Shown piece after piece: positions 30,621-55,906 of a stretch of DNA of 64,000 nucleotides. The notes under the pieces were generated by a model. The model made no database searches, was not told where the DNA came from, and worked only from the letters and a program-made list of their open reading frames with translations. Within the stretch, counting starts at the first letter, position 1; the number at the start of each line of letters is the position of its first letter. Location: the NCBI GenBank assembly GCA_965204375.1, contig OZ241986.1, positions 5,248,001 through 5,312,000 on the forward strand. The letters run 5' to 3'. Source of the stretch: Candidatus Latescibacterota bacterium. GTDB taxonomy: Bacteria; Latescibacterota; UBA2968. Both the position numbers and the translations under genes were made by a program.

Positions 30621-32368
<1,748 letters not shown>

Positions 32369-32550
32369 TGTTACAATTTAATTCGTTGTGTCACAATAGT
32401 TTCGAGCTACATATGTGCGAAGGAAGAGGTTCATGACTCTCAATCTCTATCATCAGAAAAGAGAAGGCCTTCAATTTTTCTAATTTTCAATAAGTTAGAC
32501 AAAGTGCGGACCTCCCTGTATTTGTCTGACCGCTTGTGGTTCGCGCTGAG
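32369..32550 (-). promoter_or_regulatory. CRISPR leader
   Basis: AT-rich segment between cas2 and the first repeat. Confidence 0.7.
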
Positions 32551-34631: not shown

Positions 34632-35597
34632 TTAAAGCAGATCAATAGCTTCGACATTTGCCGGCATGTCATCCAGGTCGAGAGTTACGCTATAGTCTGA
34701 GTATTGGCGGGCCGGTGGCAGCATTCCGCCATTGTTATCGGTTTCCGCACGCTCCACACGCACCCGTTCAAAAAGTTTATGCGCGGGCGCGTTGCCGAGT
34801 GCGCTTTCATGTCGGAAGACAATGAGGCGTTGGGCGACCATTTCACCGCGGGCTGCCGAGCGATCATGTTCGAACATTTGTGTTAAGGCGGTCCATAGAA
34901 AGTCGAGGTCGTCTGGTGAAAAGCCAGTGCGTTCAGCGAGCTTGGCAGAAATAAATCCGTGTGCCCGATATAGCCCGTAGGGGACAATATGCTTGCGGCC
35001 CATGGTACGGTGCTCAATGCGCTCGTCGCCTTCAGTTTCATCACTGCCCTGCTCGCGCTCCTGCTTTTCCTTTTCGGTGGTTGCTGCCATGCGGGTAATG
35101 GACATTTCGAGTGGGACAATAGGATCAATGGACCGCGCAAAAGTCATTTGTACCGGACCGCGCACTTGACCGCAGTTGATACCGGTGCTCATGACTGCGC
35201 CAAAGGTGCGCACATCAAAGAAGTTGTCGCACATGAAGCCGCGCAGGGCATCCATCTCCTCATCTGCTGTTATTTTTTTCGTTTTGTTTTCTTTTGGAGA
35301 CAGTCTGGTGGCTCTCTCGACTGTCTTGTCATCGGGACGCACAGCCCGATATGCTTTTCGGTGCTGCTCGTTGAGCAAGGCGCCTTCCTGCACATAGATG
35401 GCATAGCCGGACTCGTCGCTTTTGGCGAGTTCGACGAAGTTGCGTACTTTGCGCTTGAGGCAGACGTCAGAGACCAATCCCTGGTTCGTTTCCGGGTCGA
35501 GGCGCGGTAGATTGCCTGCATCCGGGTCGCCATTGGGGTTGCCATTGGTCACGTCGAATAGATAGACGAAGTCGTAGCGATGGTTGAGTGTAGTCAT
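34632..35597 (-). CDS. cas7: Cas7c/Csd2
   Basis: [30 protein letters not shown]. Confidence 0.97.
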
Positions 35598-35995
35598 TCT
35601 TCATTCTCCTTTTGATCTTTTTTCTCGTTTCTGGGTGTGTAAAAAGCGTTTTTTTGATGGTAGTAGCCGATAGCAAAGAGGGCCTGATGATCCATGTCGA
35701 GCGTCGGTACAAATAGTGCATCTGCCGCCGCACACTCGTAAATCTGGGCGATGGCATTGTCGATATAGCGATGCGTTCCAGTTCGGTCTTTTCGCAGACG
35801 CGATAGATGGTGCATGGCATTGCGTTGTAGAATGGGAAATACAGACCGGGGCGTCGCTGAAGCCGCCCCATAGTACTTATCACATATCGTGGCGTTGATT
35901 TTTCCACCAAGTGCCTGCGTTTGTGCATATTCAAAACAGGCAAATAGGCGACCGAGCAAATAGCCGGGGTCGGCGTTTGTGGGATCGAGTGACAC
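35594..35995 (-). CDS. cas11: Cas11c small subunit, internal in-frame start in cas8c
   Basis: AAGGAGG (36004-36010) lies 8 nt before an in-frame GTG at 35995, giving (M)SLDPTN. Confidence 0.8.
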
Positions 35996-37402
35996 GAGGA
36001 AATCCTCCTTTTGTGAATGTCCAGTCATGCGCCGTTTGCGGCAGATCACAGCTTTGAGTAAGGCGATACGCAGGCCGGTTATGGCCTTGTCTGACCGCAA
36101 GCGCATAAGAATCGTGGATAATAATGTCTGCGGGTAGGCTTGACCCGTTAGTATGGCGCGTAACATATCCCCAGCGAGTTGGGGAGGGATATTTTCATAT
36201 CGGTTTTTTACTTTCGTTGTGGCGGTCTCAAGCAGACAGCGCCGAACGCTTGGTTGCTCCTGGTATGGCGGAGGGTCAAGGCGCATATCCCGATAGTGAT
36301 AGAGGATGTGCTCTGCAAGCGTCGCAAAGTCATCCTCCATCCAGAAGCGTATCGAAATACGCGTTTTATTGGGAGCCAATCCCAGCACGTAGAAGCGCAC
36401 ACCCTGAGGTAAATTCGGGCGGATTTCCTCCATGGGACGACCACTTGCCATTTTTTCGAGAATGGGCTTGATGGCCTGTTCGCTTATTTCGTCGTCTATT
36501 TCATTGATGGCAAAAGCAAATATGGCCTCACTTTGCGCTACTGCTTCGGCATTTGAGCCTTCTGCCCAGAATACCGTCGAAGCATCGCTGAGTTGGACTC
36601 TGTTTTCGTTGGTGCGGAGAAAGTGATTGAGCGCAGATGCATAAGCAGCGGCGGCATCCTCGCTTACCGGTGCATTATTGCCCTGTTTGTGCCCATAAGA
36701 AGTGAAGGCATCGAGATTGAATGAAGTGATGGATGCGCCGGAAGACTGGGCACCGCGTACCCCCTTGATTGAGGGATGTAGTCGGGCGATAGAAGATTTT
36801 TCTCCGGTCACCAGACAAACGGTCTGATCCGAGTTCTGGGACTGATTCATCTGAGATACCCAGAGTTGACGTGCGGCCTCGCGGTCGTGAATAAAGTTGC
36901 GATCCCCTTCTAACCGGAATACCACATTGGCTCCCTTCATTTCGCTTGGCCAGCCGCGTACGTCGAAATACTCTGGCTTCCACCATTGCAAGAAGCGATG
37001 ACAAGCCATAAGCCCTGAGTCGCTTTCGTGTTGCAGCGCAACGAGGTGTCGATTCTGAAAAGCTTTGTACTGTTCTGTTACCCGCTCGGTACGACGCTCT
37101 CTCTTATCTGGTGCCTCGTTTTTCATGTCTTCCAATGCCCCAAGTGAATACGATGCCTTATCCCAGAGGAAGTTAGGCACAATTTTGACCGTTCGCTTCT
37201 CTGGTCGTGGAACTGAATGTCGCGGAGCTACCAGTTTTCTTCCGGAAGGGTTTCGCAGGTCCACAGGTTGGCCCACGGGCTGACCATTGACGTTCAGGAC
37301 GATGCAATAGTCAATTTTCTCATCGGAATAGCCAATCGGCGGTACTTTGTCCTCTTTTGCGAGCCGGTGGTAGGCTCGTTCAAGGGAAGATAGAATACTC
37401 AT
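35594..37402 (-). CDS. cas8c: Cas8c/Csd1
   Basis: PNFLWDK, CLVTGE...[28 protein letters not shown]. Confidence 0.96.
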
Positions 37403-38061
37403 CGCAGTACCTCCGACGAGTTGGGTGAGGGGATTTCGACAACGCCCTGTTTCATTTGGGCGCGAAAAAATAATGGTTGTCGTTCGTTTTCATGGTCTAT
37501 GTCGTAGAGCATGTAGCCCAGGTCGCGGGTTTCGTCAATTGCTGGCGGTATATCTTCTTCGTGCTCGATCAGCGTGTAGTATGCGGCAAATTCTCGCGTT
37601 CCGAGGCAGGGTTGGTGAAAGCACTGTCCGCGTCTGGCTCGGCGATTGAAGATGTCGAGGTGTTTGCCAGCATTGTCGTCTTTACTTGCTCGATCTGTCA
37701 GGTCAAAGTGCGCTTCGATGGCGTACTCGACATCAAATAGGACAGTGGCTGCGCGTTGCTGGCGATCATCCTCAATTTTGGTGTAGAGGGATTCAATAGA
37801 GCCATTGTTTCGCGCCGTGCGAACAGAACCCATGGGAATTTTCTTGCCGACCTCGTTGCGCCGGATTGACTGGAATCGAATCGGCTTGAGGACATGGATG
37901 CGGTCAATGCGCCAGACGATGGCTGGCTTCCAGTGGATAGCCTCTAAGATGCCGCGTGCTGCTGAAGGTGTCATTACGTCGTAGGATACGCGCTCGACCT
38001 TCATTTCAGGTCGCGTGAAACAGGCGTATTCACCTTCCACGCGTAGGCGTACTCCAAACAT
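37399..38061 (-). CDS. cas5: Cas5c
   Basis: ACFTRPEMKVERVSYDVMTPSAARG, PCLGTREF. Confidence 0.97.
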   Translation of the reverse strand: MFGVRLRVEGEYACFTRPEMKVERVSYDVMTPSAARGILEAIHWKPAIVWRIDRIHVLKPIRFQSIRRNEVGKKIPMGSVRTARNNGSIESLYTKIEDDRQQRAATVLFDVEYAIEAHFDLTDRASKDDNAGKHLDIFNRRARRGQCFHQPCLGTREFAAYYTLIEHEEDIPPAIDETRDLGYMLYDIDHENERQPLFFRAQMKQGVVEIPSPNSSEVLR

Positions 38062-38113: not shown

Positions 38114-40321
38114 TTATATCAGCATTACTTCATCGCTAAGGGCATCTGCGTCTTCCCACAGAAGGCCGACATCTTTTCGATAGAGGCTTCCTGTGAAGAG
38201 AACAGCGAACTGATCGCCAAAGCGTTCCTGCGCCTCGAAATATACGTGACTATTTTTGACGAGTTGCGTCCGGTAATGAGGATGAACTTGCACAATAAAA
38301 GGCTGGAGTCGCCGCGCTATGTCACCGGGCCGTTCCGCATAAGCGAGTGCTCGCACTGCCTCGTGTGCTTCCTCTTCTCGGGCAATGATCACTGGCTCCT
38401 GTCCACTCTGGATTAAGCGAAATGTCTCGCCAACCTCGCGAAAGGAGAATGATGTTCCGTTCTGATCAGCTTTGAATTTTCGCAGAATATCATCACCGAG
38501 ACCGTCGCCTTTGCGCCAATATACCTCTTGAAAGTAATCCTCCATAGCTTCTGGCGAGAGCAAGTCATTATGACGGCCCATGATGCGTTGCATATCTCCA
38601 GCGAGTTGGCGCAACTCATGTGGACTTTGATATTCCTCTGACTGGAACACGGTGACAATGCTATCTGATTTTTCACCATTCCCTTCTCTGTTACATCGCC
38701 CGGCGGCCTGGGCAATCGAATCCAGTCCTGCCTCTGCCCGCCAAACTCTCGGAAAGTCCAGATCAACGCCTGCCTCAACCAGCGAAGTGGCAATCACTCG
38801 GCAGGGTTTGCCGGCAGAGAGACGTTGGCGCACATTTGCAAGAATACGACGACGGTGTGCCGCGTATTGGCGTGTGGTCAGGTGTATGATGCCCTCGAGT
38901 TCGTCTTCTTTGGCTTGTTGAAAGAGGGCCAGTGCGTGTTTCCGGCTGTTGACGATGACCAGCCCTTGTTTTGTCTGCGAGAGGGCATTGAGCAGGTCTT
39001 CATCGCTCAGTACACCTTCGTGGGAGATGGTGACGCGGGCGAGTTGCCGGTGCAGGCGCGGTGGGCTGGGGGCGAGTTCGTGGACCTGATTAAAGCCACC
39101 TTTGAAATCTGGTGCCTTAAGTGCGGGTTGTGTTGCGGTACAGAGTACGATTGAGGAACCATAGTTACGGGCGAGTTCGTCAATCGCGGCTACCGAAGGT
39201 CGTAGCACATGCAGAGGGATGGTTTGCGCTTCATCGAGGACAATTACCGAACGAGCCAAGTTGTGCAATTTGCGGCAGCGCGATGGGCGATGGGAAAACA
39301 GGCTTTCAAGGAGTTGGACATTTGTGGTTACGACGATGGGTGCCGCCCAGTCCTCCATAGCGAGACGGAGTTTTTCACCTCCCTCCCGCTGTATGAATTT
39401 GGTTTCGTCAATTGCCGAATGGTGTTCGAGAATTACGCCGTTGCCAAGGACCTTGCGGAAGATTGCTGCGGTCTGGTCGATTACAGAAGTAAAAGGAATA
39501 GCATAGACGATGCGCTCAAGCCCGTGTACTTTGGCATGATCAAGCGCGAAGGCGAGAGAAGTCAGGGTTTTGCCGCCGCCAGTTGGTACGTTGAGCGAGA
39601 ACAGGCCTGGAGGGCAATCGGCTTGACCTCGAACATGCGCCAGAATCTCATGGCGCAAATGGTTGACCTTTCCTTTGCTATCAAATCCCGCGAGATGATT
39701 ATTGAGACTATCGCGTAGTTGGTCAGCCTGTTCAGAAAGCGTCAGCCAGTCGCGTTCAACGGTCTTGCCTTCTGCAGTAGCGTAAAAGTTTTCGGTGTCG
39801 CGGAAGTCTGAGTCAACGAGGCAAGAGAAGATCATTCGTGTCAGGAAGGAAAGCTGAAACGCTACTCTTTCTTGATCTAATATGAAACCTTCGGGCCAAA
39901 GACCGGTAACATCTGGCTGAATTTCTGCCATCCAGGTCGAGTCAAGTGGGTCGAGAGTCTTTTTAAGCCGTTCCTCAAGAGAACCGGTTTCACGGTGCAT
40001 ATCCGGCAAACCTCCATGATGTCCTGCAATGGCGTAGGCGACGAGTTGCGCCATTGCCTGATCCATAGCAGTGTTTGCCAGATTGTTGACCATTTTTGCG
40101 CCAGCGGTCGCGTGATCAACTGCTGGACCGCCACGCAGACGCTTTTGGTACGGTTTTGTGTATTTGCCAATGTCGTGAAAAAGCCCGGCTTGACCAGCTG
40201 CTTTACCCGCGCCAAACTTATAACCTCGATCTGCAGCTTCTTTTTGAACTGCAAGAAGATGATCCTTTAATAGCTGCCAGTATTCCTCAGATTGGTCCTC
40301 CAAAGAATGTGCATAATACAT
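38114..40321 (-). CDS. cas3: Cas3 HD nuclease-helicase
   Basis: YYAHS, HDIGK, GHHGGL, PTGGGKT, DEAQ, QAAGRCNR. Confidence 0.97.
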   Translation of the reverse strand: MYYAHSLEDQSEEYWQLLKDHLLAVQKEAADRGYKFGAGKAAGQAGLFHDIGKYTKPYQKRLRGGPAVDHATAGAKMVNNLANTAMDQAMAQLVAYAIAGHHGGLPDMHRETGSLEERLKKTLDPLDSTWMAEIQPDVTGLWPEGFILDQERVAFQLSFLTRMIFSCLVDSDFRDTENFYATAEGKTVERDWLTLSEQADQLRDSLNNHLAGFDSKGKVNHLRHEILAHVRGQADCPPGLFSLNVPTGGGKTLTSLAFALDHAKVHGLERIVYAIPFTSVIDQTAAIFRKVLGNGVILEHHSAIDETKFIQREGGEKLRLAMEDWAAPIVVTTNVQLLESLFSHRPSRCRKLHNLARSVIVLDEAQTIPLHVLRPSVAAIDELARNYGSSIVLCTATQPALKAPDFKGGFNQVHELAPSPPRLHRQLARVTISHEGVLSDEDLLNALSQTKQGLVIVNSRKHALALFQQAKEDELEGIIHLTTRQYAAHRRRILANVRQRLSAGKPCRVIATSLVEAGVDLDFPRVWRAEAGLDSIAQAAGRCNREGNGEKSDSIVTVFQSEEYQSPHELRQLAGDMQRIMGRHNDLLSPEAMEDYFQEVYWRKGDGLGDDILRKFKADQNGTSFSFREVGETFRLIQSGQEPVIIAREEEAHEAVRALAYAERPGDIARRLQPFIVQVHPHYRTQLVKNSHVYFEAQERFGDQFAVLFTGSLYRKDVGLLWEDADALSDEVMLI

Positions 40322-41165
40322 ATTGGAATTTCCTCAATATTCAGGAGATTCTGAATCTCCTTGATCGTTTTCTATACAGCATCCAGTCAAAGCCATCATG
40401 TACATAAATCCATCTATAACAAACGTTTGCTGTCGTAGTTACACCACTCACCTGTTTTTCTTCAGATGCTTCGCGTCTTCATAATATACTCAGATTTTGA
40501 AAGAGTAGCCTTGCCTTTTTTAAATCTCGTCTTATTTTGGTTACGTCGTTGGTTCTGTAAACTCCCGATGCACGATATGTCTGAATGGTGATAGATAGAT
40601 TGGTATTGGAGATTTTTTGATCTTTGTCCAGGATTTTGGGCAGTAAAGAGTGTCTCAATATAAAAATATAAATGTAAAAGGACTTGCGATTCGACCTTGC
40701 AAGCCCTTTTCTGTCTTATGGTGTTTTGGAGCTCTTTATGACCAGCACACTATTTTCATTTTGAATCTCATTTAACGGAGACTGCGAGATACCGGAAAGA
40801 GTTTCGTTGTAACCACAATAAGGCTTGTTCTCCCCAGTGTGAGTAATCTTGCCAGTGCAAGGAATATGAACCATTTAGGCGAATCGGTATTTCCCTTCCT
40901 TCCGTTGTTTCAAGGCTAGCCTGTTCCGCCCACGCTAACTCGCCCTTTATTATCTGGCCTTTATGGATGCGAAATTTGGCATCGTTAGTAGTTTTCCATT
41001 TTAGAGGTGTGCATAAATCAAAAGAATAAGCCATCAGCATCTTTATCGACTCAAGCTATCTCGCACAGCGCGTGAGTCCGTCTCGCAGAGGAAATTTTTA
41101 TGGCATCCCTACTCTGAAGGCCATTGTATGGCGTACTATTATTTGGAGTGATTTGCGCTGTGCAA

Positions 41166-41237
41166 GCCCCCCGCAGGGGTGCCCTTTTTTTGCTTCATTT
41201 TTTTGGGCGTGCAAAAAAATGAAGTCGCCGAAGGCAT
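41166..41237. repeat. REP/MITE-like palindromic element
   Basis: 13-bp perfect stem cttcatttttttg/caaaaaaatgaag preceded by cccccgcagggg. Confidence 0.55.
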
Positions 41238-41311
41238 GAAAAGAAAAATATTAAAAAAACTTTATAGGTCGTTTCACCACAACAAATGAATTATCCACAC
41301 CCCTCTTTTAC

Positions 41312-43264
41312 TTACTCAGGCCGTTCCCGCACCATCTCATGCCCTTCGAGAATGTCGTAGGCAACCGCACCCTGGCTCTGGTCGGGAGGCGCAATGCCGA
41401 AGATGTGGCAAAGTGTGGGGACGACGTCTGCGGCGTGGATGTAGCCGAGTTTGTCGGTGGGGCGCTCGTAGCCTTTTTTGATGCCGGGACCCGATAGGAA
41501 AAAAGAACCAAAGCTCGATGAGATGTCGCTGCGCGTGGGGATAAAGCCGCCGTGGTGTGCGCCGAAGACTTCAGGTGCGCCTACGCAGCCACCGCCCACG
41601 ATGCCTTTCCACTGGCCGTAGTACCCGCTGACGAACCCGTGATCCCAGGCGAAAATGACGTCGCCGCACTGGTCGCCCCATTGTCCGAGTATGTACGCGT
41701 CGCGTCTGGGCAGGGCGATGGCAACGACATTGCGACCGATGTCTTCATCGACCCAGGTGCGAAGGGCGAGGAGGAGATCGCGTTCGATTTCGTCGAATTT
41801 TGGACCGGGTTCGGCGTTGATCCAGATGTCGAATCCCTTGTCGTCTTTGAGGTAGGCGCGGGTTTTTTCAAAGTCGATTTCTCTTTCGAGGACTTCATCG
41901 CGCTCGACGCCGTCGCTGGCGTCTTCTTTCAGGACGGTGAATCCGCTGTCGTGCAGGAATTTTCGGATATTGGCGATACGCACATCTGGCGATGCGCCGT
42001 GATCGGAAAGCACACCGACATAAGTGCTGTCATCGGCGGCATCCCACATGCGTTTTAAAATTTTGTCGCCGACGATGTAGGCTTTGCGGAAAAGGTGCAT
42101 GACATCGTCGGCTTTGTCGGGATCGTAAGCCGGACAAACCGGATCGACGCCGTCGAGGTGGATGTGGTTGATGTAGTCGTAGAGATGCCAGTGACAGATA
42201 AAGAAATTGGCATCTTTTTCGTGGAGCATATAATTGGCTACGTCGGCAAACCAGAGGCCCTGATATTCGCATTCTTCAAGGGCGGTGTCAAAGTCGGTCA
42301 TGCCAGATGTGTAAGGGGTCATGGAGGCGTGTTCTTGATAGGGACCAAATCGCTGGATGAGTTCGTCGGCGAGGTCATCTGGATATGTGAAGCCATCGCC
42401 ATAAGTGATCTGAGAGCGGTAGAGCTTGAGATGGGAGCCGTCGGGTTCGAGTTCGAGGAGTTTGAAGCGCACAGAGGCGCGTTGTTCGCGGCTTTCAATG
42501 CAGAAGGGTTCGATGGCCCAGTTGCTCCACGATCCCGTGCTGGTTTCGGCGATGTGGTCGTTGCCGTTTTGGGAGCGACAGACGCGCAGTGTGTCGTATC
42601 CGCCATTGGTACTGGAGAAGACGAGCAGGTGATAGCGGTTGATGTCGCCGCCGAGGCGCGCGTGGATTTCAATGGTGGAAGCGAGAGGGGGGACAGCACT
42701 CTGTGGCAGATTGGCCCAGCCCTCCGCAGGCGATAGGGCAGGGATGGGTTCTATGCTTCGCTGTCTTCTGCGTACGGCTGTGCCGTCGTGGTCCATTTCC
42801 ACGATTTCTTCGACGTGTTTGGCGGTGGTATAAGCCTGTGCCGCGGCGATTTCATAGTCGGTGCTGGCGTGTCCGGGGTGACCAAATCCGTCGATGACAT
42901 ATCCTTTTTCCACGCCTGAGGGATGCGCTGCCGGATAGTGCAGGGCAACGCCTTTGAGTCCTTCGCGCTCGAGGGCGTTCCACAGGCGTTGGGCATTGTT
43001 GGCGCGACCGTGAAAAGAGTTGATGCGTTCGCCGGGAGCGACTTCAACGCGCCAGCGCGTGACGCTGTGGGTGCCGGTGTGCGCGCCAGTGGAGAGGGTT
43101 GCCCAGTTGGTGGGCGTCCAGACGGGGAAGGAGGGGAAGGTTTCGTTGACTGCGCCCTCGTCGAGCAGGCGTTTGAAGGTTGGGATAACGCCTTCGTCGG
43201 CAAAGTATTTCATCATGGGAGTGATGAAGCCGTCCATGCCGTAGGCGATGATTTTTTTTGACAT
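41312..43264 (-). CDS. alkaline phosphatase superfamily (nucleotide pyrophosphatase/phosphodiesterase-like)
   Basis: YGMDG, WTPTNWATLSTG, SDHG, ADVVPT. Confidence 0.85.
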   Translation of the reverse strand: MSKKIIAYGMDGFITPMMKYFADEGVIPTFKRLLDEGAVNETFPSFPVWTPTNWATLSTGAHTGTHSVTRWRVEVAPGERINSFHGRANNAQRLWNALEREGLKGVALHYPAAHPSGVEKGYVIDGFGHPGHASTDYEIAAAQAYTTAKHVEEIVEMDHDGTAVRRRQRSIEPIPALSPAEGWANLPQSAVPPLASTIEIHARLGGDINRYHLLVFSSTNGGYDTLRVCRSQNGNDHIAETSTGSWSNWAIEPFCIESREQRASVRFKLLELEPDGSHLKLYRSQITYGDGFTYPDDLADELIQRFGPYQEHASMTPYTSGMTDFDTALEECEYQGLWFADVANYMLHEKDANFFICHWHLYDYINHIHLDGVDPVCPAYDPDKADDVMHLFRKAYIVGDKILKRMWDAADDSTYVGVLSDHGASPDVRIANIRKFLHDSGFTVLKEDASDGVERDEVLEREIDFEKTRAYLKDDKGFDIWINAEPGPKFDEIERDLLLALRTWVDEDIGRNVVAIALPRRDAYILGQWGDQCGDVIFAWDHGFVSGYYGQWKGIVGGGCVGAPEVFGAHHGGFIPTRSDISSSFGSFFLSGPGIKKGYERPTDKLGYIHAADVVPTLCHIFGIAPPDQSQGAVAYDILEGHEMVRERPE

Positions 43265-43498
43265 GAAAATTCCTTTGTTAGAGGTTGATTGGGATTTCTC
43301 TTTTACGAGGTGGATTGTTAAAGATAGTGCAAAAACTAAAAAAAGCACTCCACAAATATTGTCGGAGTGCTTCTTCATTTTTTTTATGCTATTCAACTTC
43401 TCAGCACCACTTACCTTACCCCAGAATTTTCCTTGGGCCTAATGCAATAAGCATCCAGTGCTGCTTCAAACAGACAAACGACAACAATGCTCTTGTGT

Positions 43499-44212
43499 TC
43501 ATATAACAATGCTTCTGGAAGTCGTCGTATATGACTCCCGTACCACCCGATTTTTCTTAATACCTGATTGTGACCAGTGCTGTTCTATTGATTGGATAAA
43601 GTCTGGTCGCACCAATTTGGCCCTTTGTACAAGCAGATTATCCTGATCAAATCTAAGATAAAGACCCTCTGCTAACTCATCGCCTAATTTTGAAAATGAT
43701 AGAAATTCTTTTAGCTCTGAAAACGTGAAATGACCCTGTGCAATGAATGGGATTTTACTTATTCCCATCTCCTGAAGAAACTCATCGCGTTTATCTCTTG
43801 ACAGGAAGTGACCAGCTTGTTTGTCATAGATGTCGAAACCGAGAAACCAATCTGGTAATCGGTCATAAAAGACCGAATGTTGTGCATAGCACCATTCGCC
43901 AAAAAGGATATAGCGGTCAATCAAATGATCAAAAAGAATGTCCTCTTTCAGGGATAGCCACTCTGATAATTTTTTCCATTGTCCCAAACCGGGAAGAGAT
44001 AGGTACGCCCCTCGATTTTGAGCGTGGATATTGCCAGAGGAGTCAAACGAGATACCGAGGTTCGCCCCGTCAACCTTTTCTTCTACGACAAGTTTATGTC
44101 CCAAGAACGCGTCGCGTTCAGGCTCCGACAGGACCTTATCGCCCCGGATATCTACACCCCCAAGGAGTGCCAGGTGTGGCGTGGTAGGAAACTTAAAGAA
44201 ATTGTCTTTCAC
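43499..44212 (-). CDS. ATP-dependent RNA ligase family protein
   Basis: Motifs EEKVDGAN, LFGEW, FLGFDIY, AEGLY, RAKLV; GTG start overlaps the upstream stop (GTGA). Confidence 0.88.
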   Translation of the reverse strand: MKDNFFKFPTTPHLALLGGVDIRGDKVLSEPERDAFLGHKLVVEEKVDGANLGISFDSSGNIHAQNRGAYLSLPGLGQWKKLSEWLSLKEDILFDHLIDRYILFGEWCYAQHSVFYDRLPDWFLGFDIYDKQAGHFLSRDKRDEFLQEMGISKIPFIAQGHFTFSELKEFLSFSKLGDELAEGLYLRFDQDNLLVQRAKLVRPDFIQSIEQHWSQSGIKKNRVVRESYTTTSRSIVI

Positions 44213-44742
44213 AGACCCTTCTCCTCGTATTTTGCTTTGATATAACACTCACAAAGAAAATGAACTTCAATTCCTGCTTTGGCTAAAGCATCCTTCCATC
44301 CCCACCATTTGCTATCCGTCGCCTGTAAAATAGGCGGTTTTTTAGCGTGTGCATTCGCCACGGCGACAAACTTGCGATCAGAAAGATCAAAATGCTCCAG
44401 ACCGGGATGCTCGTTAGTATCAGGAAATTCATCATAGGAACTGTCGTTCCTGGTAATTGTTATCCGATCGCAATTGGGTCCCCAGCAATGGTCATAGACC
44501 CACTTCATGAATCGGTCTCCCACACCGGGCTGTCCCCGCATGTTAAGATTTTGGCGGTACTCCCTGAGAATTTCATCTGCGTCGTCAATAACCAGGCAAT
44601 CATTATTGATAACATGTTCAACGGCATCTATACAGGCCAGTACACAGTCATACTCCTCTGGCGGAATATTATCGGGTTGTAAAGCGCGATTGGCCATCAC
44701 AGGAACGTTGGTATCAACCAGACATTTCTTCGGCAAATTCAT
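44209..44742 (-). CDS. PIN-like domain protein
   Basis: Acidic tetrad pattern in LVDTNV, ILREY, SDRKF, ATDSK. Confidence 0.7.
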   Translation of the reverse strand: MNLPKKCLVDTNVPVMANRALQPDNIPPEEYDCVLACIDAVEHVINNDCLVIDDADEILREYRQNLNMRGQPGVGDRFMKWVYDHCWGPNCDRITITRNDSSYDEFPDTNEHPGLEHFDLSDRKFVAVANAHAKKPPILQATDSKWWGWKDALAKAGIEVHFLCECYIKAKYEEKGL

Positions 44743-44744
44743 TT

Positions 44745-46268
44745 TTATCTCTCTAAGTTAGGCGTCTGTTTTTGTATCCGCTTTTCCATTGCCGCCCGGG
44801 CTTGCGCGGTAATGTCTCCCATCTCATCACCGAAAAAATTCTCTGGCCAGTTTCGTATATTGCCAAACTCGTCTATATCCAGAGGCTCCAGCTTAGCCCC
44901 TGCTTTTGCCTTGATGTTTTCTTGTGCGATTTCTTCCAATTTTTTCGCTGTGGCTTCGCCAATGCCAGGCACCTCGCGTAGTCTCCTTGGCATGCGAACG
45001 AGTTCATTGGCAGACGAAATGCCTGCATCCTCAAGCCGGTTTCGCATCACTTGCGTAATGTTGGGCACCGCGACCAATGGTACTGTGTTATTGATATTGG
45101 AGAAATAGACCGATACTTTGTCTTGAGACAAGCGATCCTCGGCAATTCGTCTTTGTAATCGCCGGAGAAAATGCTCGGAGTGGGTTTCAATGATCAACTG
45201 GATATTTCTTTCTTTTACGACCTCAATCATCACATCTGCCAAAGCCGATTGTGCATAAGGGTGAAGATGAACTTCTGGCTGATCTATCAGGATAATAGAT
45301 CCCTCTGGTGCATAGTCAAATTGTACGAGCACTGGAAGTACCTGAGAGATACCGAACCCGACATCTGGAAGTTCCACCCACGTAATTGATCCCTTAGTAC
45401 GCACCAGGACTTTATACAACCGATCAACAAGTTTTTCAACTTTAAAATCCTCAATCAGCCCTATATACTTGAGCTTGCTGGCGATGCGCCTTTCAAACCT
45501 CTCCTTATCCTGGGCTGCTAAAATTGCCGCGACAGTATCTTCGCCTTCATATCCCACACTTTCTGGCGTTCCTCCGGTATTGTCATACGAACGCGCAGTT
45601 TTGGTGCGGAGCGGACCGAGATAGAAAAGAGTAATGAAAAGTTCTTCATGCTTATGGTTGAATTCTCGGAGAATATCTCCGTTCCGATAGCGCGTAATTA
45701 GTGCATGAGGAAAGCGATAAAAACGGTCGGGTAAACCCCTATATAATTCCTCTATCTGCTCCGATCTCTTCTTTAATGTTAAATCAGGCGATTCAACTTT
45801 ATACGACCTTGTTCCAGGCCATCGCTCCATTCCAAATAAAAGCTGTTTTTCCCCATCCCTGATCAATCTATATTTAAATGATTTGACATAATCTTTTATG
45901 TCCCCAGTACTAACTTCTGCTTGAAAGGCGAGATCCTTACCGGAAAATCTCTCATGAGGGGGATTGGGGTTTATGACTGTCAGTGACTCTCTGAGTGACC
46001 ATTGGTACTCAAATCCAATATCTCTTTCTATATCGCGCTGGAAGACCATTTCACGGTACGATCCCAGTTGAACAGCCGAATATCTATCACCAAGATGAAA
46101 CACGTCTCGCCCTCGTGATTCAACAGTCTGCTTCAGCATGATCAGGAACTGGCCAATACTGGACTTACCGGAACTGTTGGCACCAAAGAAAAGGGTAATA
46201 GGGGCAAGGTCAATTTCGCCAGTATCCTCCCAAACCTTGAAGTTTTGAATTCGCAATTTCTTTAGCAT
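44745..46268 (-). CDS. ABC-type ATPase (AAA_15/21) with DUF3696-like C-terminus and an inserted HhH module
   Basis: GANSSGKS, VGFGISQ, IDQPEVHLHP, IETHSEH, WPENFF; insert contains VPGIGEATAKKL. Confidence 0.85.
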   Translation of the reverse strand: MLKKLRIQNFKVWEDTGEIDLAPITLFFGANSSGKSSIGQFLIMLKQTVESRGRDVFHLGDRYSAVQLGSYREMVFQRDIERDIGFEYQWSLRESLTVINPNPPHERFSGKDLAFQAEVSTGDIKDYVKSFKYRLIRDGEKQLLFGMERWPGTRSYKVESPDLTLKKRSEQIEELYRGLPDRFYRFPHALITRYRNGDILREFNHKHEELFITLFYLGPLRTKTARSYDNTGGTPESVGYEGEDTVAAILAAQDKERFERRIASKLKYIGLIEDFKVEKLVDRLYKVLVRTKGSITWVELPDVGFGISQVLPVLVQFDYAPEGSIILIDQPEVHLHPYAQSALADVMIEVVKERNIQLIIETHSEHFLRRLQRRIAEDRLSQDKVSVYFSNINNTVPLVAVPNITQVMRNRLEDAGISSANELVRMPRRLREVPGIGEATAKKLEEIAQENIKAKAGAKLEPLDIDEFGNIRNWPENFFGDEMGDITAQARAAMEKRIQKQTPNLER

Positions 46269-46405
46269 ATTTTTCCTTCATTCTGTTTGTCGCTTGTAAG
46301 TCATTTATCTTCATATACAAATAGGATTTGAAAAAAAGTAGCATCCAACCCCTTAAAACGCAAGCAGAATTAGAAACAGAATCCTACCAGGGAGTGAGAC
46401 AGTTT

Positions 46406-47143
46406 CTAAATTGGTCGTCGCGTGAGACTGAAGGTTTGAGCGGTCGGTCCCCCGTCGGGTTGGGTGGCTAAAAAGAGCGCGAGGGGGGCGACATCTTCGG
46501 GTGCTTTGACGACTTCGCTGGGTGCGAAGGGCGGTGGACCGCCCACTCTCATGCGACCGCCGGTAAGACGTGTGGCTACCGGGCCGGGGATGAGTTCGTT
46601 GACCGTGATGTTGTGTTCCCAGACTTCTTCTGATAGGCATTGGGTGAACATCCACATACCGGCTTTGCCAACGTGATACGCAGAACCGCCCGCTCTGGGG
46701 CGATGGCCCATGCCCGATCCTACGTTGATGACTCTGCCACCGCCGGAGTCAATCATGAGGGGGAGCAAGGCGTGTGAGACGAGGTAGGCACTGATGCAGT
46801 TTACCGTGACGTCTTTGATCCAGAGATCGGGATCGCTGTCGAGGATGCTGTTGCGCTCTATGCCGCCGCCCGCATTGTTGACGAGGATGTCCAGGCGGTC
46901 AAATTCTCCGCGAACTTTTTCGGCCAGTGCATCTACGCTCTGGCGGTTGGTGACGTCGGTGGGTACGGACAGGACTTTGCGGCCGAGGGCGCGAATTTCT
47001 TCGGCAACGGCATCGAGTTGTTCGGTCGTGCGTGCGGCGAGTATGAGGTCGGCTCCTTCTGTGGCAAAGGCGATGGCAATGGCGCGACCAATACCCCGCC
47101 CACTGCCTGTGACGAGTGCGATTTTTCCGGTGAGTTGTGACAT
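46406..47143 (-). CDS. SDR oxidoreductase
   Basis: TGSGRGIG, NNAG, YHVGK. Confidence 0.92.
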   Translation of the reverse strand: MSQLTGKIALVTGSGRGIGRAIAIAFATEGADLILAARTTEQLDAVAEEIRALGRKVLSVPTDVTNRQSVDALAEKVRGEFDRLDILVNNAGGGIERNSILDSDPDLWIKDVTVNCISAYLVSHALLPLMIDSGGGRVINVGSGMGHRPRAGGSAYHVGKAGMWMFTQCLSEEVWEHNITVNELIPGPVATRLTGGRMRVGGPPPFAPSEVVKAPEDVAPLALFLATQPDGGPTAQTFSLTRRPI

Positions 47144-55808: not shown

Positions 55809-55906
55809 GGGAGTGGATGGGGAACTGGTGTCCCCCGCGGGCTTCAAACCCGTTGTTGCGTGCTAACCCCACGCTTGGTGGGTTCGATTCCCACACATTC
55901 CCGCCA
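55809..55906 (+). tRNA. selC: tRNA-Sec (anticodon TCA)
   Basis: Anticodon loop cttcaaa, long variable arm, T-loop ttcgatt, GCCA end; directly after selD. Confidence 0.95.

Follow-up and report, generated by a model that had tools for sequence, protein, structure and literature searches.

The window analysed here, a stretch of 64,000 nucleotides from a Candidatus Latescibacterota bacterium, carries on its minus strand a three-gene cassette that encodes an ABC-type ATPase, a PIN-domain nuclease and an RNA ligase. Its features are as follows.

~43283..46403 (~3.1 kb), no strand assigned: inserted cassette, comprising the three genes, their own upstream region and a terminator, delimited by same-genus junction alignment and G+C content
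43338..43376, minus strand: terminator-like hairpin and U-run 3′ of the ligase gene, from an RNA fold of 43310-43400
43499..44212, minus strand: stand-alone RNA ligase (ATP-dependent; 237 aa, GTG start) with no domain beyond the nucleotidyltransferase, assigned by PF09414
44209..44742, minus strand: PIN-domain nuclease, HEC-03 PIN (177 aa), assigned by PADLOC HEC-03A and a structure model
44745..46268, minus strand: ABC-type ATPase, HEC-03 ATPase, NsnB-like (507 aa, ATG start, TAA stop), assigned by PADLOC and Pfam
44811..44888, minus strand: DUF3696 C-terminal tail with the motif NWPxxFFGD (ATPase residues 461-486), PF12476
44904..45077, minus strand: helix-hairpin-helix insert (ATPase residues ~398-455) separating the ATPase core from the DUF3696 tail, assigned by Pfam
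46158..46184, minus strand: Walker A motif GANSSGKSS (ATPase residues 29-37), with G, N, G and K invariant in 37/37 aligned ATPases
46269..46403, minus strand: upstream non-coding region, within the inserted segment

The genes are read in the order ATPase (46268-44745), PIN (44742-44209) and ligase (44212-43499). A first-pass annotation had called them tightly coupled, and the ORF coordinates bear this out: the ATPase and PIN genes, on the same strand, are 2 bp apart with no small ORF between them, and the GTG start of the ligase gene at 44212 lies within a GTGA that overlaps the TGA stop of the PIN gene. The G+C content of 43250-46500 is 0.38-0.48, compared with 0.49-0.60 in the flanks, in agreement with the AT-richness noted earlier, and the description of the cassette as inserted among metabolic genes about 3 kb from cas3 (38114-40321, in a type I-C CRISPR-Cas system) also holds. 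Same-genus genomes align with the window up to ~43264-43282 on the left and from ~46404-46407 on the right, and the site is empty in 12 of the 20 other genomes of the genus; since the two flanking genes, encoding a phosphodiesterase (Phosphodiest) and a short-chain dehydrogenase (adh_short), are only 11-112 bp apart in these, the cassette is a true insertion. As had been stated, no DUF262 gene is present in or beside the cassette, and no integrase or replication gene accompanies it in the window. Downstream of the ligase gene, the minus-strand fold of 43310-43400 has a stability of -27.5 kcal/mol (z -5.6), equalled by 0 of 200 shuffles; the hairpin, missed by a simple terminator scan, is possibly a bidirectional terminator, because an A-run precedes it. 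No sigma-70-like site was found by consensus scan in 46269..46403.

The first-pass annotation regarded the three genes as a candidate defence system, and for the ATPase and PIN genes searches with the PADLOC models agree, with matches to both HEC-03 models. The ATPase matches HEC-03B (PDLC04148; 3.3e-108), NsnB (8.2e-58) and PDC-M55A (5.4e-57), and weakly AriA (3e-28), PtuA (2e-11) and GajA (2e-11); its residues 1-395 align to positions 1-411 of the 458 in the HEC-03 ATPase model. Pfam matches are to AAA_15 (1.5e-25), AAA_21 (1.4e-19) and DUF3696 (PF12476; 3.6e-7 and 30.7 bits, where the cut-off is 22 bits), and the W, P and FFG of the DUF3696 tail are invariant in all 37 aligned ATPases. A GxG signature replaces SGG, and Walker B is non-canonical. 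The insert next to the tail matches HHH_5 at 1.8e-5 and 25.5 bits, which is below the 27-bit cut-off, and HHH_8 and IMS_HHH more weakly; it is found in four of the 37 ATPases (the window, L078, L070 and L077). The usual role of helix-hairpin-helix motifs is in binding the DNA backbone.

The PIN protein matches HEC-03A (PDLC04147) at 7.6e-27 and has no match in a Pfam search, and PF13470 (the PIN_3/COG1569 group) is matched weakly by 14 of 36 family PINs at E-values up to 1, the best being 2.5e-4. Its structure model (pLDDT 95.5) resembles eight PIN-domain entries with Z scores of 9.2-8.1, seven of which are VapC or toxin-antitoxin complex chains; the closest is the VapC toxin 5sv2 (Z 9.2, rmsd 3.8 over 130 residues). 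Among 36 homologues D10, E61 and D122 never vary, and at least 90 % of them keep D143. A VapB-type antitoxin gene is absent from the position directly upstream, which is occupied by the gene for the 507-aa ATPase. Metal-dependent cleavage by PIN domains leaves 3′-OH and 5′-phosphate ends.

The ligase matches PF09414 with an E-value of 1.6e-32 (113.5 bits, cut-off 27) and TIGR01209 with 24.7 bits, under its 136.9-bit cut-off; none of the PADLOC models matches it. Motifs I (K46, in KVDGAN), III (G105-E106), IV (E182-G183..R187) and V (K199) are all recognizable, residues K46, D48, G49, N51, G105, E106, E182, G183, R187 and K199 are invariant in both homologue sets (26/26 and 15/15), and a C-terminal motif, Q207-S208..H212-W213, is conserved. 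The Walker A motif, the PIN acidic residues and the ligase motifs, described in the first-pass annotation as intact, are thus all conserved in homologue alignments. Beyond the catalytic domain the ligase model (pLDDT 88.8) has nothing but a tail of low confidence, and from this model and the 237-aa length the Rnl2 C-terminal domain and the Rnl5 N-terminal OB domain, both of which serve RNA binding, are absent. Foldseek gives 51 matches at E-values up to 0.001, headed by T4 Rnl2 (2hvr, 3e-8), Trypanosoma brucei REL1 (1xdn, 5.4e-8) and a Naegleria RNA ligase (6vt4, 8.6e-8) and with Rnl3 ligases also near the top; RNA ligases rank above DNA ligases, whose E-values are ~1000-fold weaker. T4 Rnl2 and REL1 are nick-sealing RNA ligases, and the entry 6vt4 is titled as nick-sealing. 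A sequence comparison with solved structures places the Rnl3-type ligases 3qwu (4.9e-4), 8uce and 5d1o among the nearest relatives; some entries (3qwu) are labelled DNA ligase. The Rnl3 family circularizes single-stranded RNA. Distant stand-alone homologues (26-30 % identity) are present in jumbo phages.

The first-pass annotation named a ligase not conserved with the pair as grounds for refuting its proposal, and this refutation fails. Of 80 ligase-centred loci, drawn from many phyla, 63 have PIN and ATPase genes directly upstream of the ligase gene, a recurrence that puts the arrangement far beyond chance, and the overlap of PIN stop and ligase start is itself seen in many loci (e.g. L091-L099, L102, L103, L108). 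Within the phylum, PIN and ligase genes are adjacent in 15 cases in 14 of 168 genomes, and 15 of 29 PIN loci with clear matches carry the ligase; in another class, from which 400 genomes were sampled evenly, four of six PIN loci do so. On an ATPase tree with 27 ligase-bearing and 10 ligase-less loci the two kinds form clean, separate clades, and two changes suffice (0 of 500 shuffles were as low). By these comparisons, the ligase is a real partner of the ATPase-PIN pair. The core mechanism does not depend on it, since 14 intact two-gene HEC-03 relatives in the phylum, and the HEC-03 system that has been tested, lack it. Within the ligase clade, G260 has ATPase and PIN genes and no ligase gene in the next 312 bp, where the contig ends. 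G088 combines a PIN allele from the ligase-less clade with an ATPase and a ligase (87 % identity) of the window's clade, which suggests that the coupling of PIN and ligase is loose, and one Burkholderiales/Acidobacteriota lineage (seven loci) has PIN and ligase genes without an ATPase, with the PIN residues intact in L117, the only member aligned.

The trio is patchy within the genus and has often decayed. In seven of eight decayed three-gene loci in the phylum the ligase frame is full-length with the ATPase or PIN gene broken or gone. The ligase dN/dS in decayed loci, 0.17-0.37, is similar to the 0.21-0.41 between intact loci; because these pairs take in branches that precede the decay, and the loci are related to one another, the persistence of the ligase beyond its partners is only suggestive of an antidote-like asymmetry. 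Conjugative plasmids also carry copies of the trio, with Hok and AbiEii genes next to them; these copies and the empty sites in the genus provide good support for horizontal acquisition of the cassette. Nine of the 22 trio loci sampled have named defence genes within 5 kb, and two of these nine lie inside BREX; this is a raw count without a matched control. What the trio is, that it is mobile and that it is conserved are all well supported, and the cassette is placed in the HEC-03 anti-phage family, in a three-gene form.

The mechanism that we favour, with a probability of about 0.55, is that of a PIN RNase gated by the ATPase, with the ligase as an antidote within the system that reseals the cuts of the RNase. 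The ATPase would form an oligomer that holds the PIN protein by its C-terminal DUF3696 tails, by analogy with AlphaFold predictions for Menshen and with the Septu and PARIS assemblies as the Menshen paper describes them, and on sensing a phage cue would, on the same three analogies, release or activate it; the helix-hairpin-helix insert beside the tail may, speculatively, contribute nucleic-acid binding to the sensing or targeting step. The active nuclease, with its VapC-like D-E-D-D site, would then cut an essential RNA (tRNA, rRNA or mRNA) and bring translation to a stop. An ATP-dependent Rnl2-type ligase seals 3′-OH/5′-phosphate ends and requires no end-healing enzyme, so that breaks made by the PIN protein should suit it directly; since PIN-type ends are exactly the substrate of such a ligase, the most likely role of the ligase, given here in translational coupling, is that of a catalytic antidote. 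By resealing breaks left by leaky or past PIN activity it would lessen self-damage and permit the cell to recover, a logic resembling that of DarT/DarG, in which the antidote reverses the product of the toxin and which is also anti-phage. During an infection, however, it would seem counter to defence for the host to encode a ligase that reverses what the effector has cut. We found in the literature no experiment on a ligase-bearing HEC-03-like locus and no test of a ligase that reverses self-damage in this way.

It is conceivable, if unlikely, that the ligase belongs to the weapon and misjoins PIN-cut ends, by circularizing them or by resealing them after nucleotide excision, so as to inflict permanent damage on tRNA, rRNA or phage transcripts that no phage could repair. 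The strict co-orientation of the ligase gene and its translational coupling 3′ of the PIN gene would fit, as would the Rnl3-type relatives among its solved sequence neighbours, with their circularizing activity, and the stable separation of ligase-bearing from ligase-less clades, expected if the ligase alters how the system acts. Excision of the wobble nucleotide by RloC offers a precedent for repair-proof damage (available text of PMC2610378). Nevertheless, orphan ligases that keep open frames and low dN/dS after the decay of PIN or ATPase are hard to explain as effector subunits, and in G088 the PIN has been swapped for an allele of the ligase-less clade. The nick-sealing character of the top folds, T4 Rnl2, REL1 and the Naegleria enzyme, also argues against it. 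Decidedly unlikely, in our estimation, is a PIN-ligase effector that cuts and rejoins RNA, excising and resealing or circularizing tRNA, rRNA or phage transcripts beyond repair, with the helix-hairpin-helix ATPase aiming the pair at nucleic acid in this lineage; were it so, immunity would operate by programmed rewriting of RNA and not by cleavage followed by repair. We also doubt that the trio chiefly serves mobile elements as a selfish addiction module, with the PIN as toxin, the ligase as enzymatic antitoxin, the ATPase as regulator and defence as a side effect at most. The plasmid copies beside Hok and AbiEii genes would agree with this, as would an entry in a P4 satellite (supplementary catalogue of PMC9122126), the patchy distribution and frequent decay, the PIN-ligase pairs without an ATPase, and the ligase being the last gene lost; yet the two-gene core is anti-phage by experiment, according to the available text of Payne et al. 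(2024; 10.1101/2024.01.29.577857), those nine of 22 loci sit among defence genes, including the two inside BREX, and the window cassette is chromosomal with neither integrase nor replication gene. Defence and addiction are in any case compatible roles and not exclusive.

Two further proposals concern the substrate and the chemistry. We consider it highly improbable that the substrates of nuclease and ligase are DNA or RNA:DNA hybrids, with the helix-hairpin-helix ATPase guiding PIN-like or FEN-like nicking of phage DNA or replication intermediates and the ligase sealing nicks in the host. The insert is of a usually DNA-binding type and adjoins the effector-holding tail, and PF09414 enzymes seal nicks, some entries (3qwu again) bearing the label DNA ligase; the insert, though, is missing from 33 of the 37 family ATPases and therefore cannot define the substrate of the family. 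The PIN-like superfamily does include DNA flap nucleases (as stated in the available text of PMC5499597), but the best structural matches of this PIN are all VapC-type RNases, and the ligase folds point the same way, the top ones all being RNA ligases and DNA ligases being ~1000-fold weaker in E-value. Very little credence, finally, attaches to action by adenylyl transfer without joining, in which RNA 5′ ends or a protein would be tagged with AMP as a signal or as a regulator of ATPase and PIN. The ligase is indeed a nucleotidyltransferase domain alone, of 237 aa, with the conserved C-terminal Q207-S208..H212-W213, and isolated Rnl2 catalytic domains self-adenylylate and are poor at RNA adenylylation; against this, motifs IV and V, which the joining steps need, are invariant, and there is no gene for a partner to an AMP mark or for its reader.

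Among the HEC-03-like loci sampled, some half or more have an RNA ligase, a component missing from the models of defence annotators. Should it be an antidote, such loci would encode immunity with a built-in enzymatic off-switch, in which the cell cuts its own RNA to stall the phage and then mends it, and this would bear both on the question whether RNase-based 'abortive' defence is really reversible dormancy and on the means by which autoimmunity stays low; if it is a weapon, it would represent a new route to repair-proof RNA damage.

The first-pass annotation presented the trio as a candidate undescribed system and knew of no named one, and this does not stand; the match to a described system that it gave as grounds for refutation is present. 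The pair is HEC-03 by PADLOC annotation, the layout of the trio is catalogued by Rousset et al. (2022; PMC9122126), and a probably equivalent conflict system is cited in the available text of PMC5499597. HEC-03 (Hma-embedded candidate 03; Payne et al., 2024, bioRxiv 10.1101/2024.01.29.577857) is included in PADLOC-DB v2, and in the available text of the preprint a homologue is a two-gene anti-phage system of which both genes are required, tested with IPTG omitted because expression was toxic. The window cassette shares with it a tight co-oriented operon of an ABC ATPase with a DUF3696-type tail and a VapC-like PIN, and relatives that are often embedded among defence genes; it differs in having a helix-hairpin-helix insert in the ATPase and, where HEC-03 as defined and tested has two genes, in adding a translationally coupled RNA ligase inside the inserted cassette. 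The word 'ligase' occurs 0 times in the main text of the preprint. We note that the letters are swapped between sources, the ATPase being A and the PIN B in the preprint, and the PIN A and the ATPase B in the PADLOC models.

Supplementary file 1 of Rousset et al. (2022) lists a 'DUF3696 ATPase + hypothetical + RNA_ligase' locus with the same domain order as the window trio, although it is a single P4-satellite locus, a catalogue entry only, with a fourth hypothetical gene. In the available text of Matelska et al. (2017; PMC5499597), Burroughs & Aravind (2016) are credited with a ligase-ATPase-nuclease conflict system in which the RNA ligase neutralizes nucleases, an idea in common with the antidote role favoured here. 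The PIN of the system as cited is of the PIN_3/COG1569 group, which 14 of 36 family PINs match weakly and the window PIN does not match in Pfam. The operon of ligase, ATPase and nuclease is shared with the window, whereas the HNH nuclease that the system as cited includes is absent from the window cassette, and an HNH gene lies 3′ of the ligase in only one of 22 sampled trio loci (L156); compared through this citing paper, the two are probably equivalent.

Menshen (NsnABC) resembles the cassette in its NsnB-like ATPase (8.2e-58), its DUF3696 tail and a partner with a PIN fold, and, from the available text of PMC12065111, in the GxG in place of SGG and the non-canonical Walker B; AlphaFold predictions in the same source have the DUF3696 tails clamping the PIN-like domain. 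The window, however, has no gene for NsnA (ParB/DUF262) and carries a ligase, and NsnC is described there as an inactive PIN adaptor fused to a C-terminal nuclease, whereas the 177-aa window PIN, which the PADLOC NsnC model does not match, is unfused and keeps its catalytic residues. PARIS, Septu and Gabija likewise join a sensor ABC ATPase to a nuclease effector, and PARIS and Septu are reported, in the text available, to cut tRNA, but their effectors are Toprim (AriB, GajA) or HNH (PtuB) and not PIN, and none encodes a ligase; the DUF4435/Toprim partner AriB of PARIS is absent from the window, only the ATPase being weakly AriA-like (3e-28). The window PIN has the fold and active site of VapC, although in place of the VapB protein antitoxin of VapBC it adjoins an ATPase and a ligase. 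The opposition of an ATP-dependent RNA ligase to a ribotoxin is known from T4 Rnl1/Pnkp against PrrC (available text of PMC4411300). In that system, as in bacterial Pnkp-Hen1 and Pnkp1-Rnl-Hen1, end-healing is needed for 2′,3′-cyclic phosphate/5′-OH ends and it is the party attacked that carries the repair genes, whereas the window cassette lacks a kinase, phosphatase or methylase and its nuclease and ligase share one operon. The window trio is thus one more member of a catalogued architecture, its helix-hairpin-helix insert being a minor local variation; pair and layout were already on record, and the ligase is a widespread third partner of the HEC-03-like pair.

The cassette consists of three tightly coupled minus-strand genes with a strong terminator-like hairpin downstream, and it lies among genes encoding a phosphodiesterase, a short-chain dehydrogenase, an enolase-superfamily enzyme and type I-C Cas proteins.

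Features of the cassette and of the type I-C CRISPR-cas genes near it (window coordinates)
46268-44745, minus strand: ATPase gene, 507 aa
44742-44209, minus strand: PIN protein gene, 177 aa, after a 2-bp gap from the ATPase gene
44212-43499, minus strand: RNA ligase gene, 237 aa, with a GTG start at 44212, the GTGA overlapping the stop codon of the 177-aa gene
43338-43376: terminator-like hairpin within the insert (z -5.6)
38114-40321: cas3, type I-C
37399-38061: cas5d, type I-C
35594-37402: csd1, type I-C
31013-32370: CRISPR array with a 32-nt repeat, GTTTCAATCCACGCCCCCATGTAGGGAGCGAC

The G+C content over 43250-46500 is 0.38-0.48, compared with 0.49-0.60 on both sides; the first-pass annotation had reported three coupled genes of low G+C content, and the same ORFs and the same drop were recovered here. 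A 7.1-kb query across the locus was compared with the genus's 20 other genomes. In 12 of them (G072-G080 and G085-G087) the phosphodiesterase gene is 11-112 bp away from the dehydrogenase gene; the site is occupied in five (intact in G081 and G088, decayed in G083, G089 and G082), and the region is rearranged or barely matches in three (G084, G091 and G090). The cassette is an insertion with its own upstream region inside the insert, the limits of which are placed by junction alignment at approximately 43283 and 46403. No integrase or target-site duplication was seen at the cassette ends, a scan for promoter and terminator consensus sequences did no better than shuffles (7 sites, 5.4 expected; 4 sites, 3.2 expected), and Rfam and tRNA scans of the cassette gave nothing credible, the sole hit being a 21-bit match to an miRNA model on the terminator hairpin. 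RNA-library contigs from three studies match parts of all three genes at 90-99 % identity, and one 373-nt piece, from a relative, spans the PIN/ATPase junction; since DNA carry-over is possible, these are a weak hint of transcription. We note separately that a low-G+C stretch (0.38-0.44) at 40322-41311, between cas3 and the phosphodiesterase gene, contains a 90-aa ORF (40768-41040) without a Pfam match and is possibly a second small insertion, and that the sole tRNA gene in the window is a tRNA-SeC (anticodon TCA) at 55809-55906.

The ATPase has Pfam matches to AAA_15, AAA_21 and the DUF3696 tail. The PADLOC models for HEC-03, a two-gene anti-phage system, match the ATPase at 3.3e-108 and the 177-aa protein at 7.6e-27, and it is very probable that the cassette belongs to the HEC-03 family. 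Across 37 family ATPases the G, N, G and K positions of the Walker A motif GxNSSGK[ST]S are invariant, the Walker B and signature motifs read [E/D]QPE and GFG, and NWPxxFFGD in the DUF3696 tail is nearly invariant. The model for NsnB of the Menshen system (NsnABC) matches the ATPase at 8.2e-58, and a GxG signature and a non-canonical Walker B, described for NsnB in the available text of PMC12065111, are common to it and the family ATPases. A sub-threshold helix-hairpin-helix Pfam match at residues 398-450 lies in an insert (residues ~398-455) that separates the ATPase core from the DUF3696 tail; this insert is present in four of the 37 aligned ATPases, namely those of the window, G081, G088 and G134, all from the same phylum, and is a minor lineage-specific variation.

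The 177-aa protein has no Pfam match, and PIN_3 is weakly matched by 14 of 36 family members. When it was modelled from an alignment of 36 homologues (pLDDT 95.5), the best structural matches were all PIN domains, VapC toxins foremost (Z of 9.2 for 5sv2, 8.9 for 6a7v and 8.8 for 4chg in a wide VIA search), and a Foldseek search of the PDB with the model gave weak rows only, with no match at E up to 0.001. Among the 36 homologues, which come from both two-gene and three-gene loci, residues D10, E61 and D122 never vary and D143 hardly does, and because of this conservation the PIN domain looks catalytic, in contrast to the PIN domains of Menshen NsnC, which passages of PMC12065111 present as inactive adaptors. 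Membership of Menshen, PARIS, Septu, Gabija and VapBC was considered and rejected.

The third protein matches RNA_ligase (PF09414) at 1.6e-32 and has no match among the PADLOC models. Matches of its sequence to the PDB are weak (best 4.9e-4), and the nearest folds to its model (pLDDT 88.8) are T4 Rnl2, Trypanosoma brucei REL1 and the Naegleria RNA ligase, followed by Rnl3-type and tRNA ligases, with DNA ligases far behind. T4 Rnl2 and REL1 are nick-sealing enzymes, and the Naegleria ligase is called nick-sealing in its own PDB title. Every homologue in two sets of 15 and 26 (15/15 and 26/26) carries motifs I, III, IV and V unchanged. The protein has a nucleotidyltransferase domain and nothing more; the additional RNA-binding domains found in Rnl2 and Rnl5 are absent. 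Conservation extends past motif V to a C-terminal motif at residues 207-213, a part modelled with lower confidence: Q207 is kept in at least 90 % of 26 ligases, S208 belongs to the same motif, and H212 and W213 are invariant. A complex prediction for the PIN protein and the ligase, run without controls, scored 0.00 and is uninformative on binding either way.

Among the 168 genomes of the window's phylum the PIN model matches 30 genomes and PF09414 matches 23, with the ligase gene directly downstream of the PIN gene on the same strand at 15 loci in 14 genomes. Loci were resolved with 12.5-kb flanks, two ligase loci without a PIN-model match (L084 in G082 and L085 in G138) were added, and marginal PIN matches in G009, G142 and G072 (E ~1e-4) were set aside. 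The phylum contains nine intact trios (the window, L056, L057, which was counted although cut by a contig end, L059, L060, L061, L070, L077 and L078), eight decayed trios (L058 and L079-L085) and 14 intact ATPase-PIN loci without a ligase (L062-L069 and L071-L076). The intact-trio ligases form two deeply divergent clades, about 30 % identical to each other.

A wider, ligase-centred scan, with profiles built from the phylum's proteins and one genome per species, gave 80 loci from Nitrospirota, Thermodesulfobacteriota, Pseudomonadota, Verrucomicrobiota, Myxococcota, Planctomycetota, Chlorobiota, Spirochaetota, Synergistota, Bacillota, a candidate-phyla-radiation genome and others. PIN and ATPase genes lie directly upstream of the ligase on the same strand at 63 of the 80; PIN alone is beside it at nine (two cut by contig ends), ATPase alone at one, and neither at seven (four with little upstream sequence). 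Genomes selected independently of the ligase gave a similar result: 400 scored genomes were drawn evenly from the class to which a Variovorax genome belongs, and the PIN family was found in six new genomes among them, with the ligase adjoining in four. It is missing from the two-gene-type locus of G460, and in G260 a ligase-clade ATPase and PIN are followed by 312 bp without a ligase to the contig end. The ligase is conserved together with the ATPase-PIN pair across phyla, and the first-pass treatment of the three genes as one unit is upheld in this respect. Seven loci with PIN and ligase but without ATPase (L117, L118, L121, L125, L126, L127 and L133), from Burkholderiales and one Acidobacteriota record, adjoin divergently transcribed gspA/gspB-like genes and look like one lineage of a two-gene module; the PIN residues are intact in L117, the one member aligned.

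An ATPase tree was built from 37 rows, comprising the window, nine phylum trio loci, 17 of the 63 wide trios (hand-picked for taxonomic spread) and ten of the 14 two-gene loci, L063, L064, L065 and L075 being omitted as close to rows kept. The 27 ligase-bearing and ten ligase-less loci are separated by two state changes, a number as low being reached in 0 of 500 shuffles. Presence of the ligase is therefore a stable property of whole clades. Loci that are close together on this tree belong to unrelated phyla, an indication of horizontal transfer. The PIN tree (36 rows) is broadly congruent with it, with one exception, G088. The PIN of this same-genus genome (L070, 5880-6377), 41 % identical to that of the window, clusters with the ligase-less clade at support 94 (not starred). 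The ATPase and ligase on either side of it remain of the window's type, the ATPase being sister to that of G081 and the ligase sharing 87 % identity with the window ligase; DNA identity between G088 and the window breaks exactly over the PIN gene. PIN alleles can therefore be exchanged under the same ligase.

Decay of the trios is uneven. Seven of the eight decayed phylum trios retain a ligase reading frame of full length, and it is the ATPase or the PIN gene that has been lost, cut short or frameshifted in them; the exception, L081, has a single deletion that took out the end of the PIN gene together with the start of the ligase gene. Elsewhere, similar remnants are seen at L101, L147 and L164, and at L123 the ATPase C-terminus is fused to the ligase and the PIN gene is deleted. 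(The L123 record bears the title of a Klebsiella pneumoniae MAG; at 68 % G+C, against nearer 57 % in K. pneumoniae, it is probably mis-binned.) Pairwise ligase dN/dS is 0.17-0.37 for decayed and 0.21-0.41 for intact loci, and since these related loci are not independent and some of the branches compared predate the decay, the asymmetry is suggestive rather than a test; G260 is a counter-example.

Flanks were scanned at 22 trio loci (25 were hand-picked and three dropped for size), and named defence genes lie within 5 kb at nine of them, a count that has no matched control. Two trios are inside BREX systems, L097 (226-10557) with PglX upstream and PglZ downstream, and L105 (111-8659) with PsyrTA upstream and PglZ and BrxA downstream; HEC-03 was itself discovered through embedding of this kind. 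L140, L151, L156 and L157 each have a type IIG/DrmMI methylase gene immediately upstream, L137 has a type II restriction-modification pair nearby, L138 a Cas3-like helicase and Ppl, and L162 HEC-05. Plasmids carry homologues 42-48 % identical to the window ligase, and on a conjugative Aeromonas salmonicida plasmid a 'DUF3696 domain-containing protein', a 'hypothetical protein' and an 'RNA ligase family protein' are encoded consecutively, adjoining AbiEii and Hok genes; such copies and the empty sites in the genus show that the cassette is mobile. Phage records contain only distant stand-alone ligase homologues (26-30 % identity), mostly in jumbo phages. Those of Caulobacter, Xanthomonas, Agrobacterium, Salicola and other hosts encode stand-alone ligases of the window ligase's size (H1-H15), and these may be counter-defence RNA repair enzymes.

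How the three proteins might work together can be proposed by analogy. The ATPase oligomer would restrain the PIN protein through the DUF3696 tails, as suggested by the predicted NsnB-NsnC assemblies and by Septu and PARIS as these are described in passages of PMC12065111. A phage cue would free the PIN protein. Metal-dependent PIN cleavage leaves 3'-OH and 5'-phosphate ends, and an ATP-dependent ligase could seal these directly, so that no kinase, phosphatase or methylase would have to accompany it; the cassette ligase has none, in contrast to Pnkp-Hen1-type repair with its end-processing partners. Given the restraint analogy and this end chemistry, the reading we prefer is that the ligase serves as a catalytic antidote, limiting damage to the cell itself and letting it recover, with a probability of roughly 0.55 for the statement as a whole.

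Other roles are conceivable for the same three proteins. The ligase could be part of the effector, in a cut-and-rejoin reaction, or the trio could serve mainly as an addiction module, which is compatible with defence; we consider either of these unlikely, and about equally so. That the substrates are DNA or hybrids is less probable again, and that the ligase acts by AMP-tagging is the least probable of these proposals.

HEC-03 is described in the available text of the preprint of Payne et al. (2024, bioRxiv 10.1101/2024.01.29.577857) as a two-gene ABC ATPase and PIN system that reduces plaquing, requires both genes and was expressed without IPTG owing to apparent toxicity. The preprint letters the ATPase as A and the PIN as B, the opposite of the PADLOC models, and the word 'ligase' is absent from its main text. 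Our literature search found no paper treating the ATPase-PIN-ligase trio in its main text and no experimental work on the role of the ligase, and the trio was absent from the available passages on PADLOC 2022, the Forsberg-lab metagenomic selections, jumbo phages and the Rtc operon, and from main-text passages of Rousset et al. (2022; PMC9122126). Nevertheless, the first-pass description of the system as undescribed does not hold, since the pair is HEC-03 and supplementary file 1 of Rousset et al. (2022) already shows the domain layout of the three genes. In the passages available, Matelska et al. (2017; PMC5499597) credit Burroughs & Aravind (2016) with a conflict system in which an RNA ligase neutralises nucleases, and the wording credited there, 'ligase, ATPase and HNH', fits L156 (5715-10525), where the ligase gene is directly followed by a gene for an HNH nuclease and by a split SIR2 gene resembling Dsr1. 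The cassette is a real and well-conserved feature, of a kind already known and catalogued.
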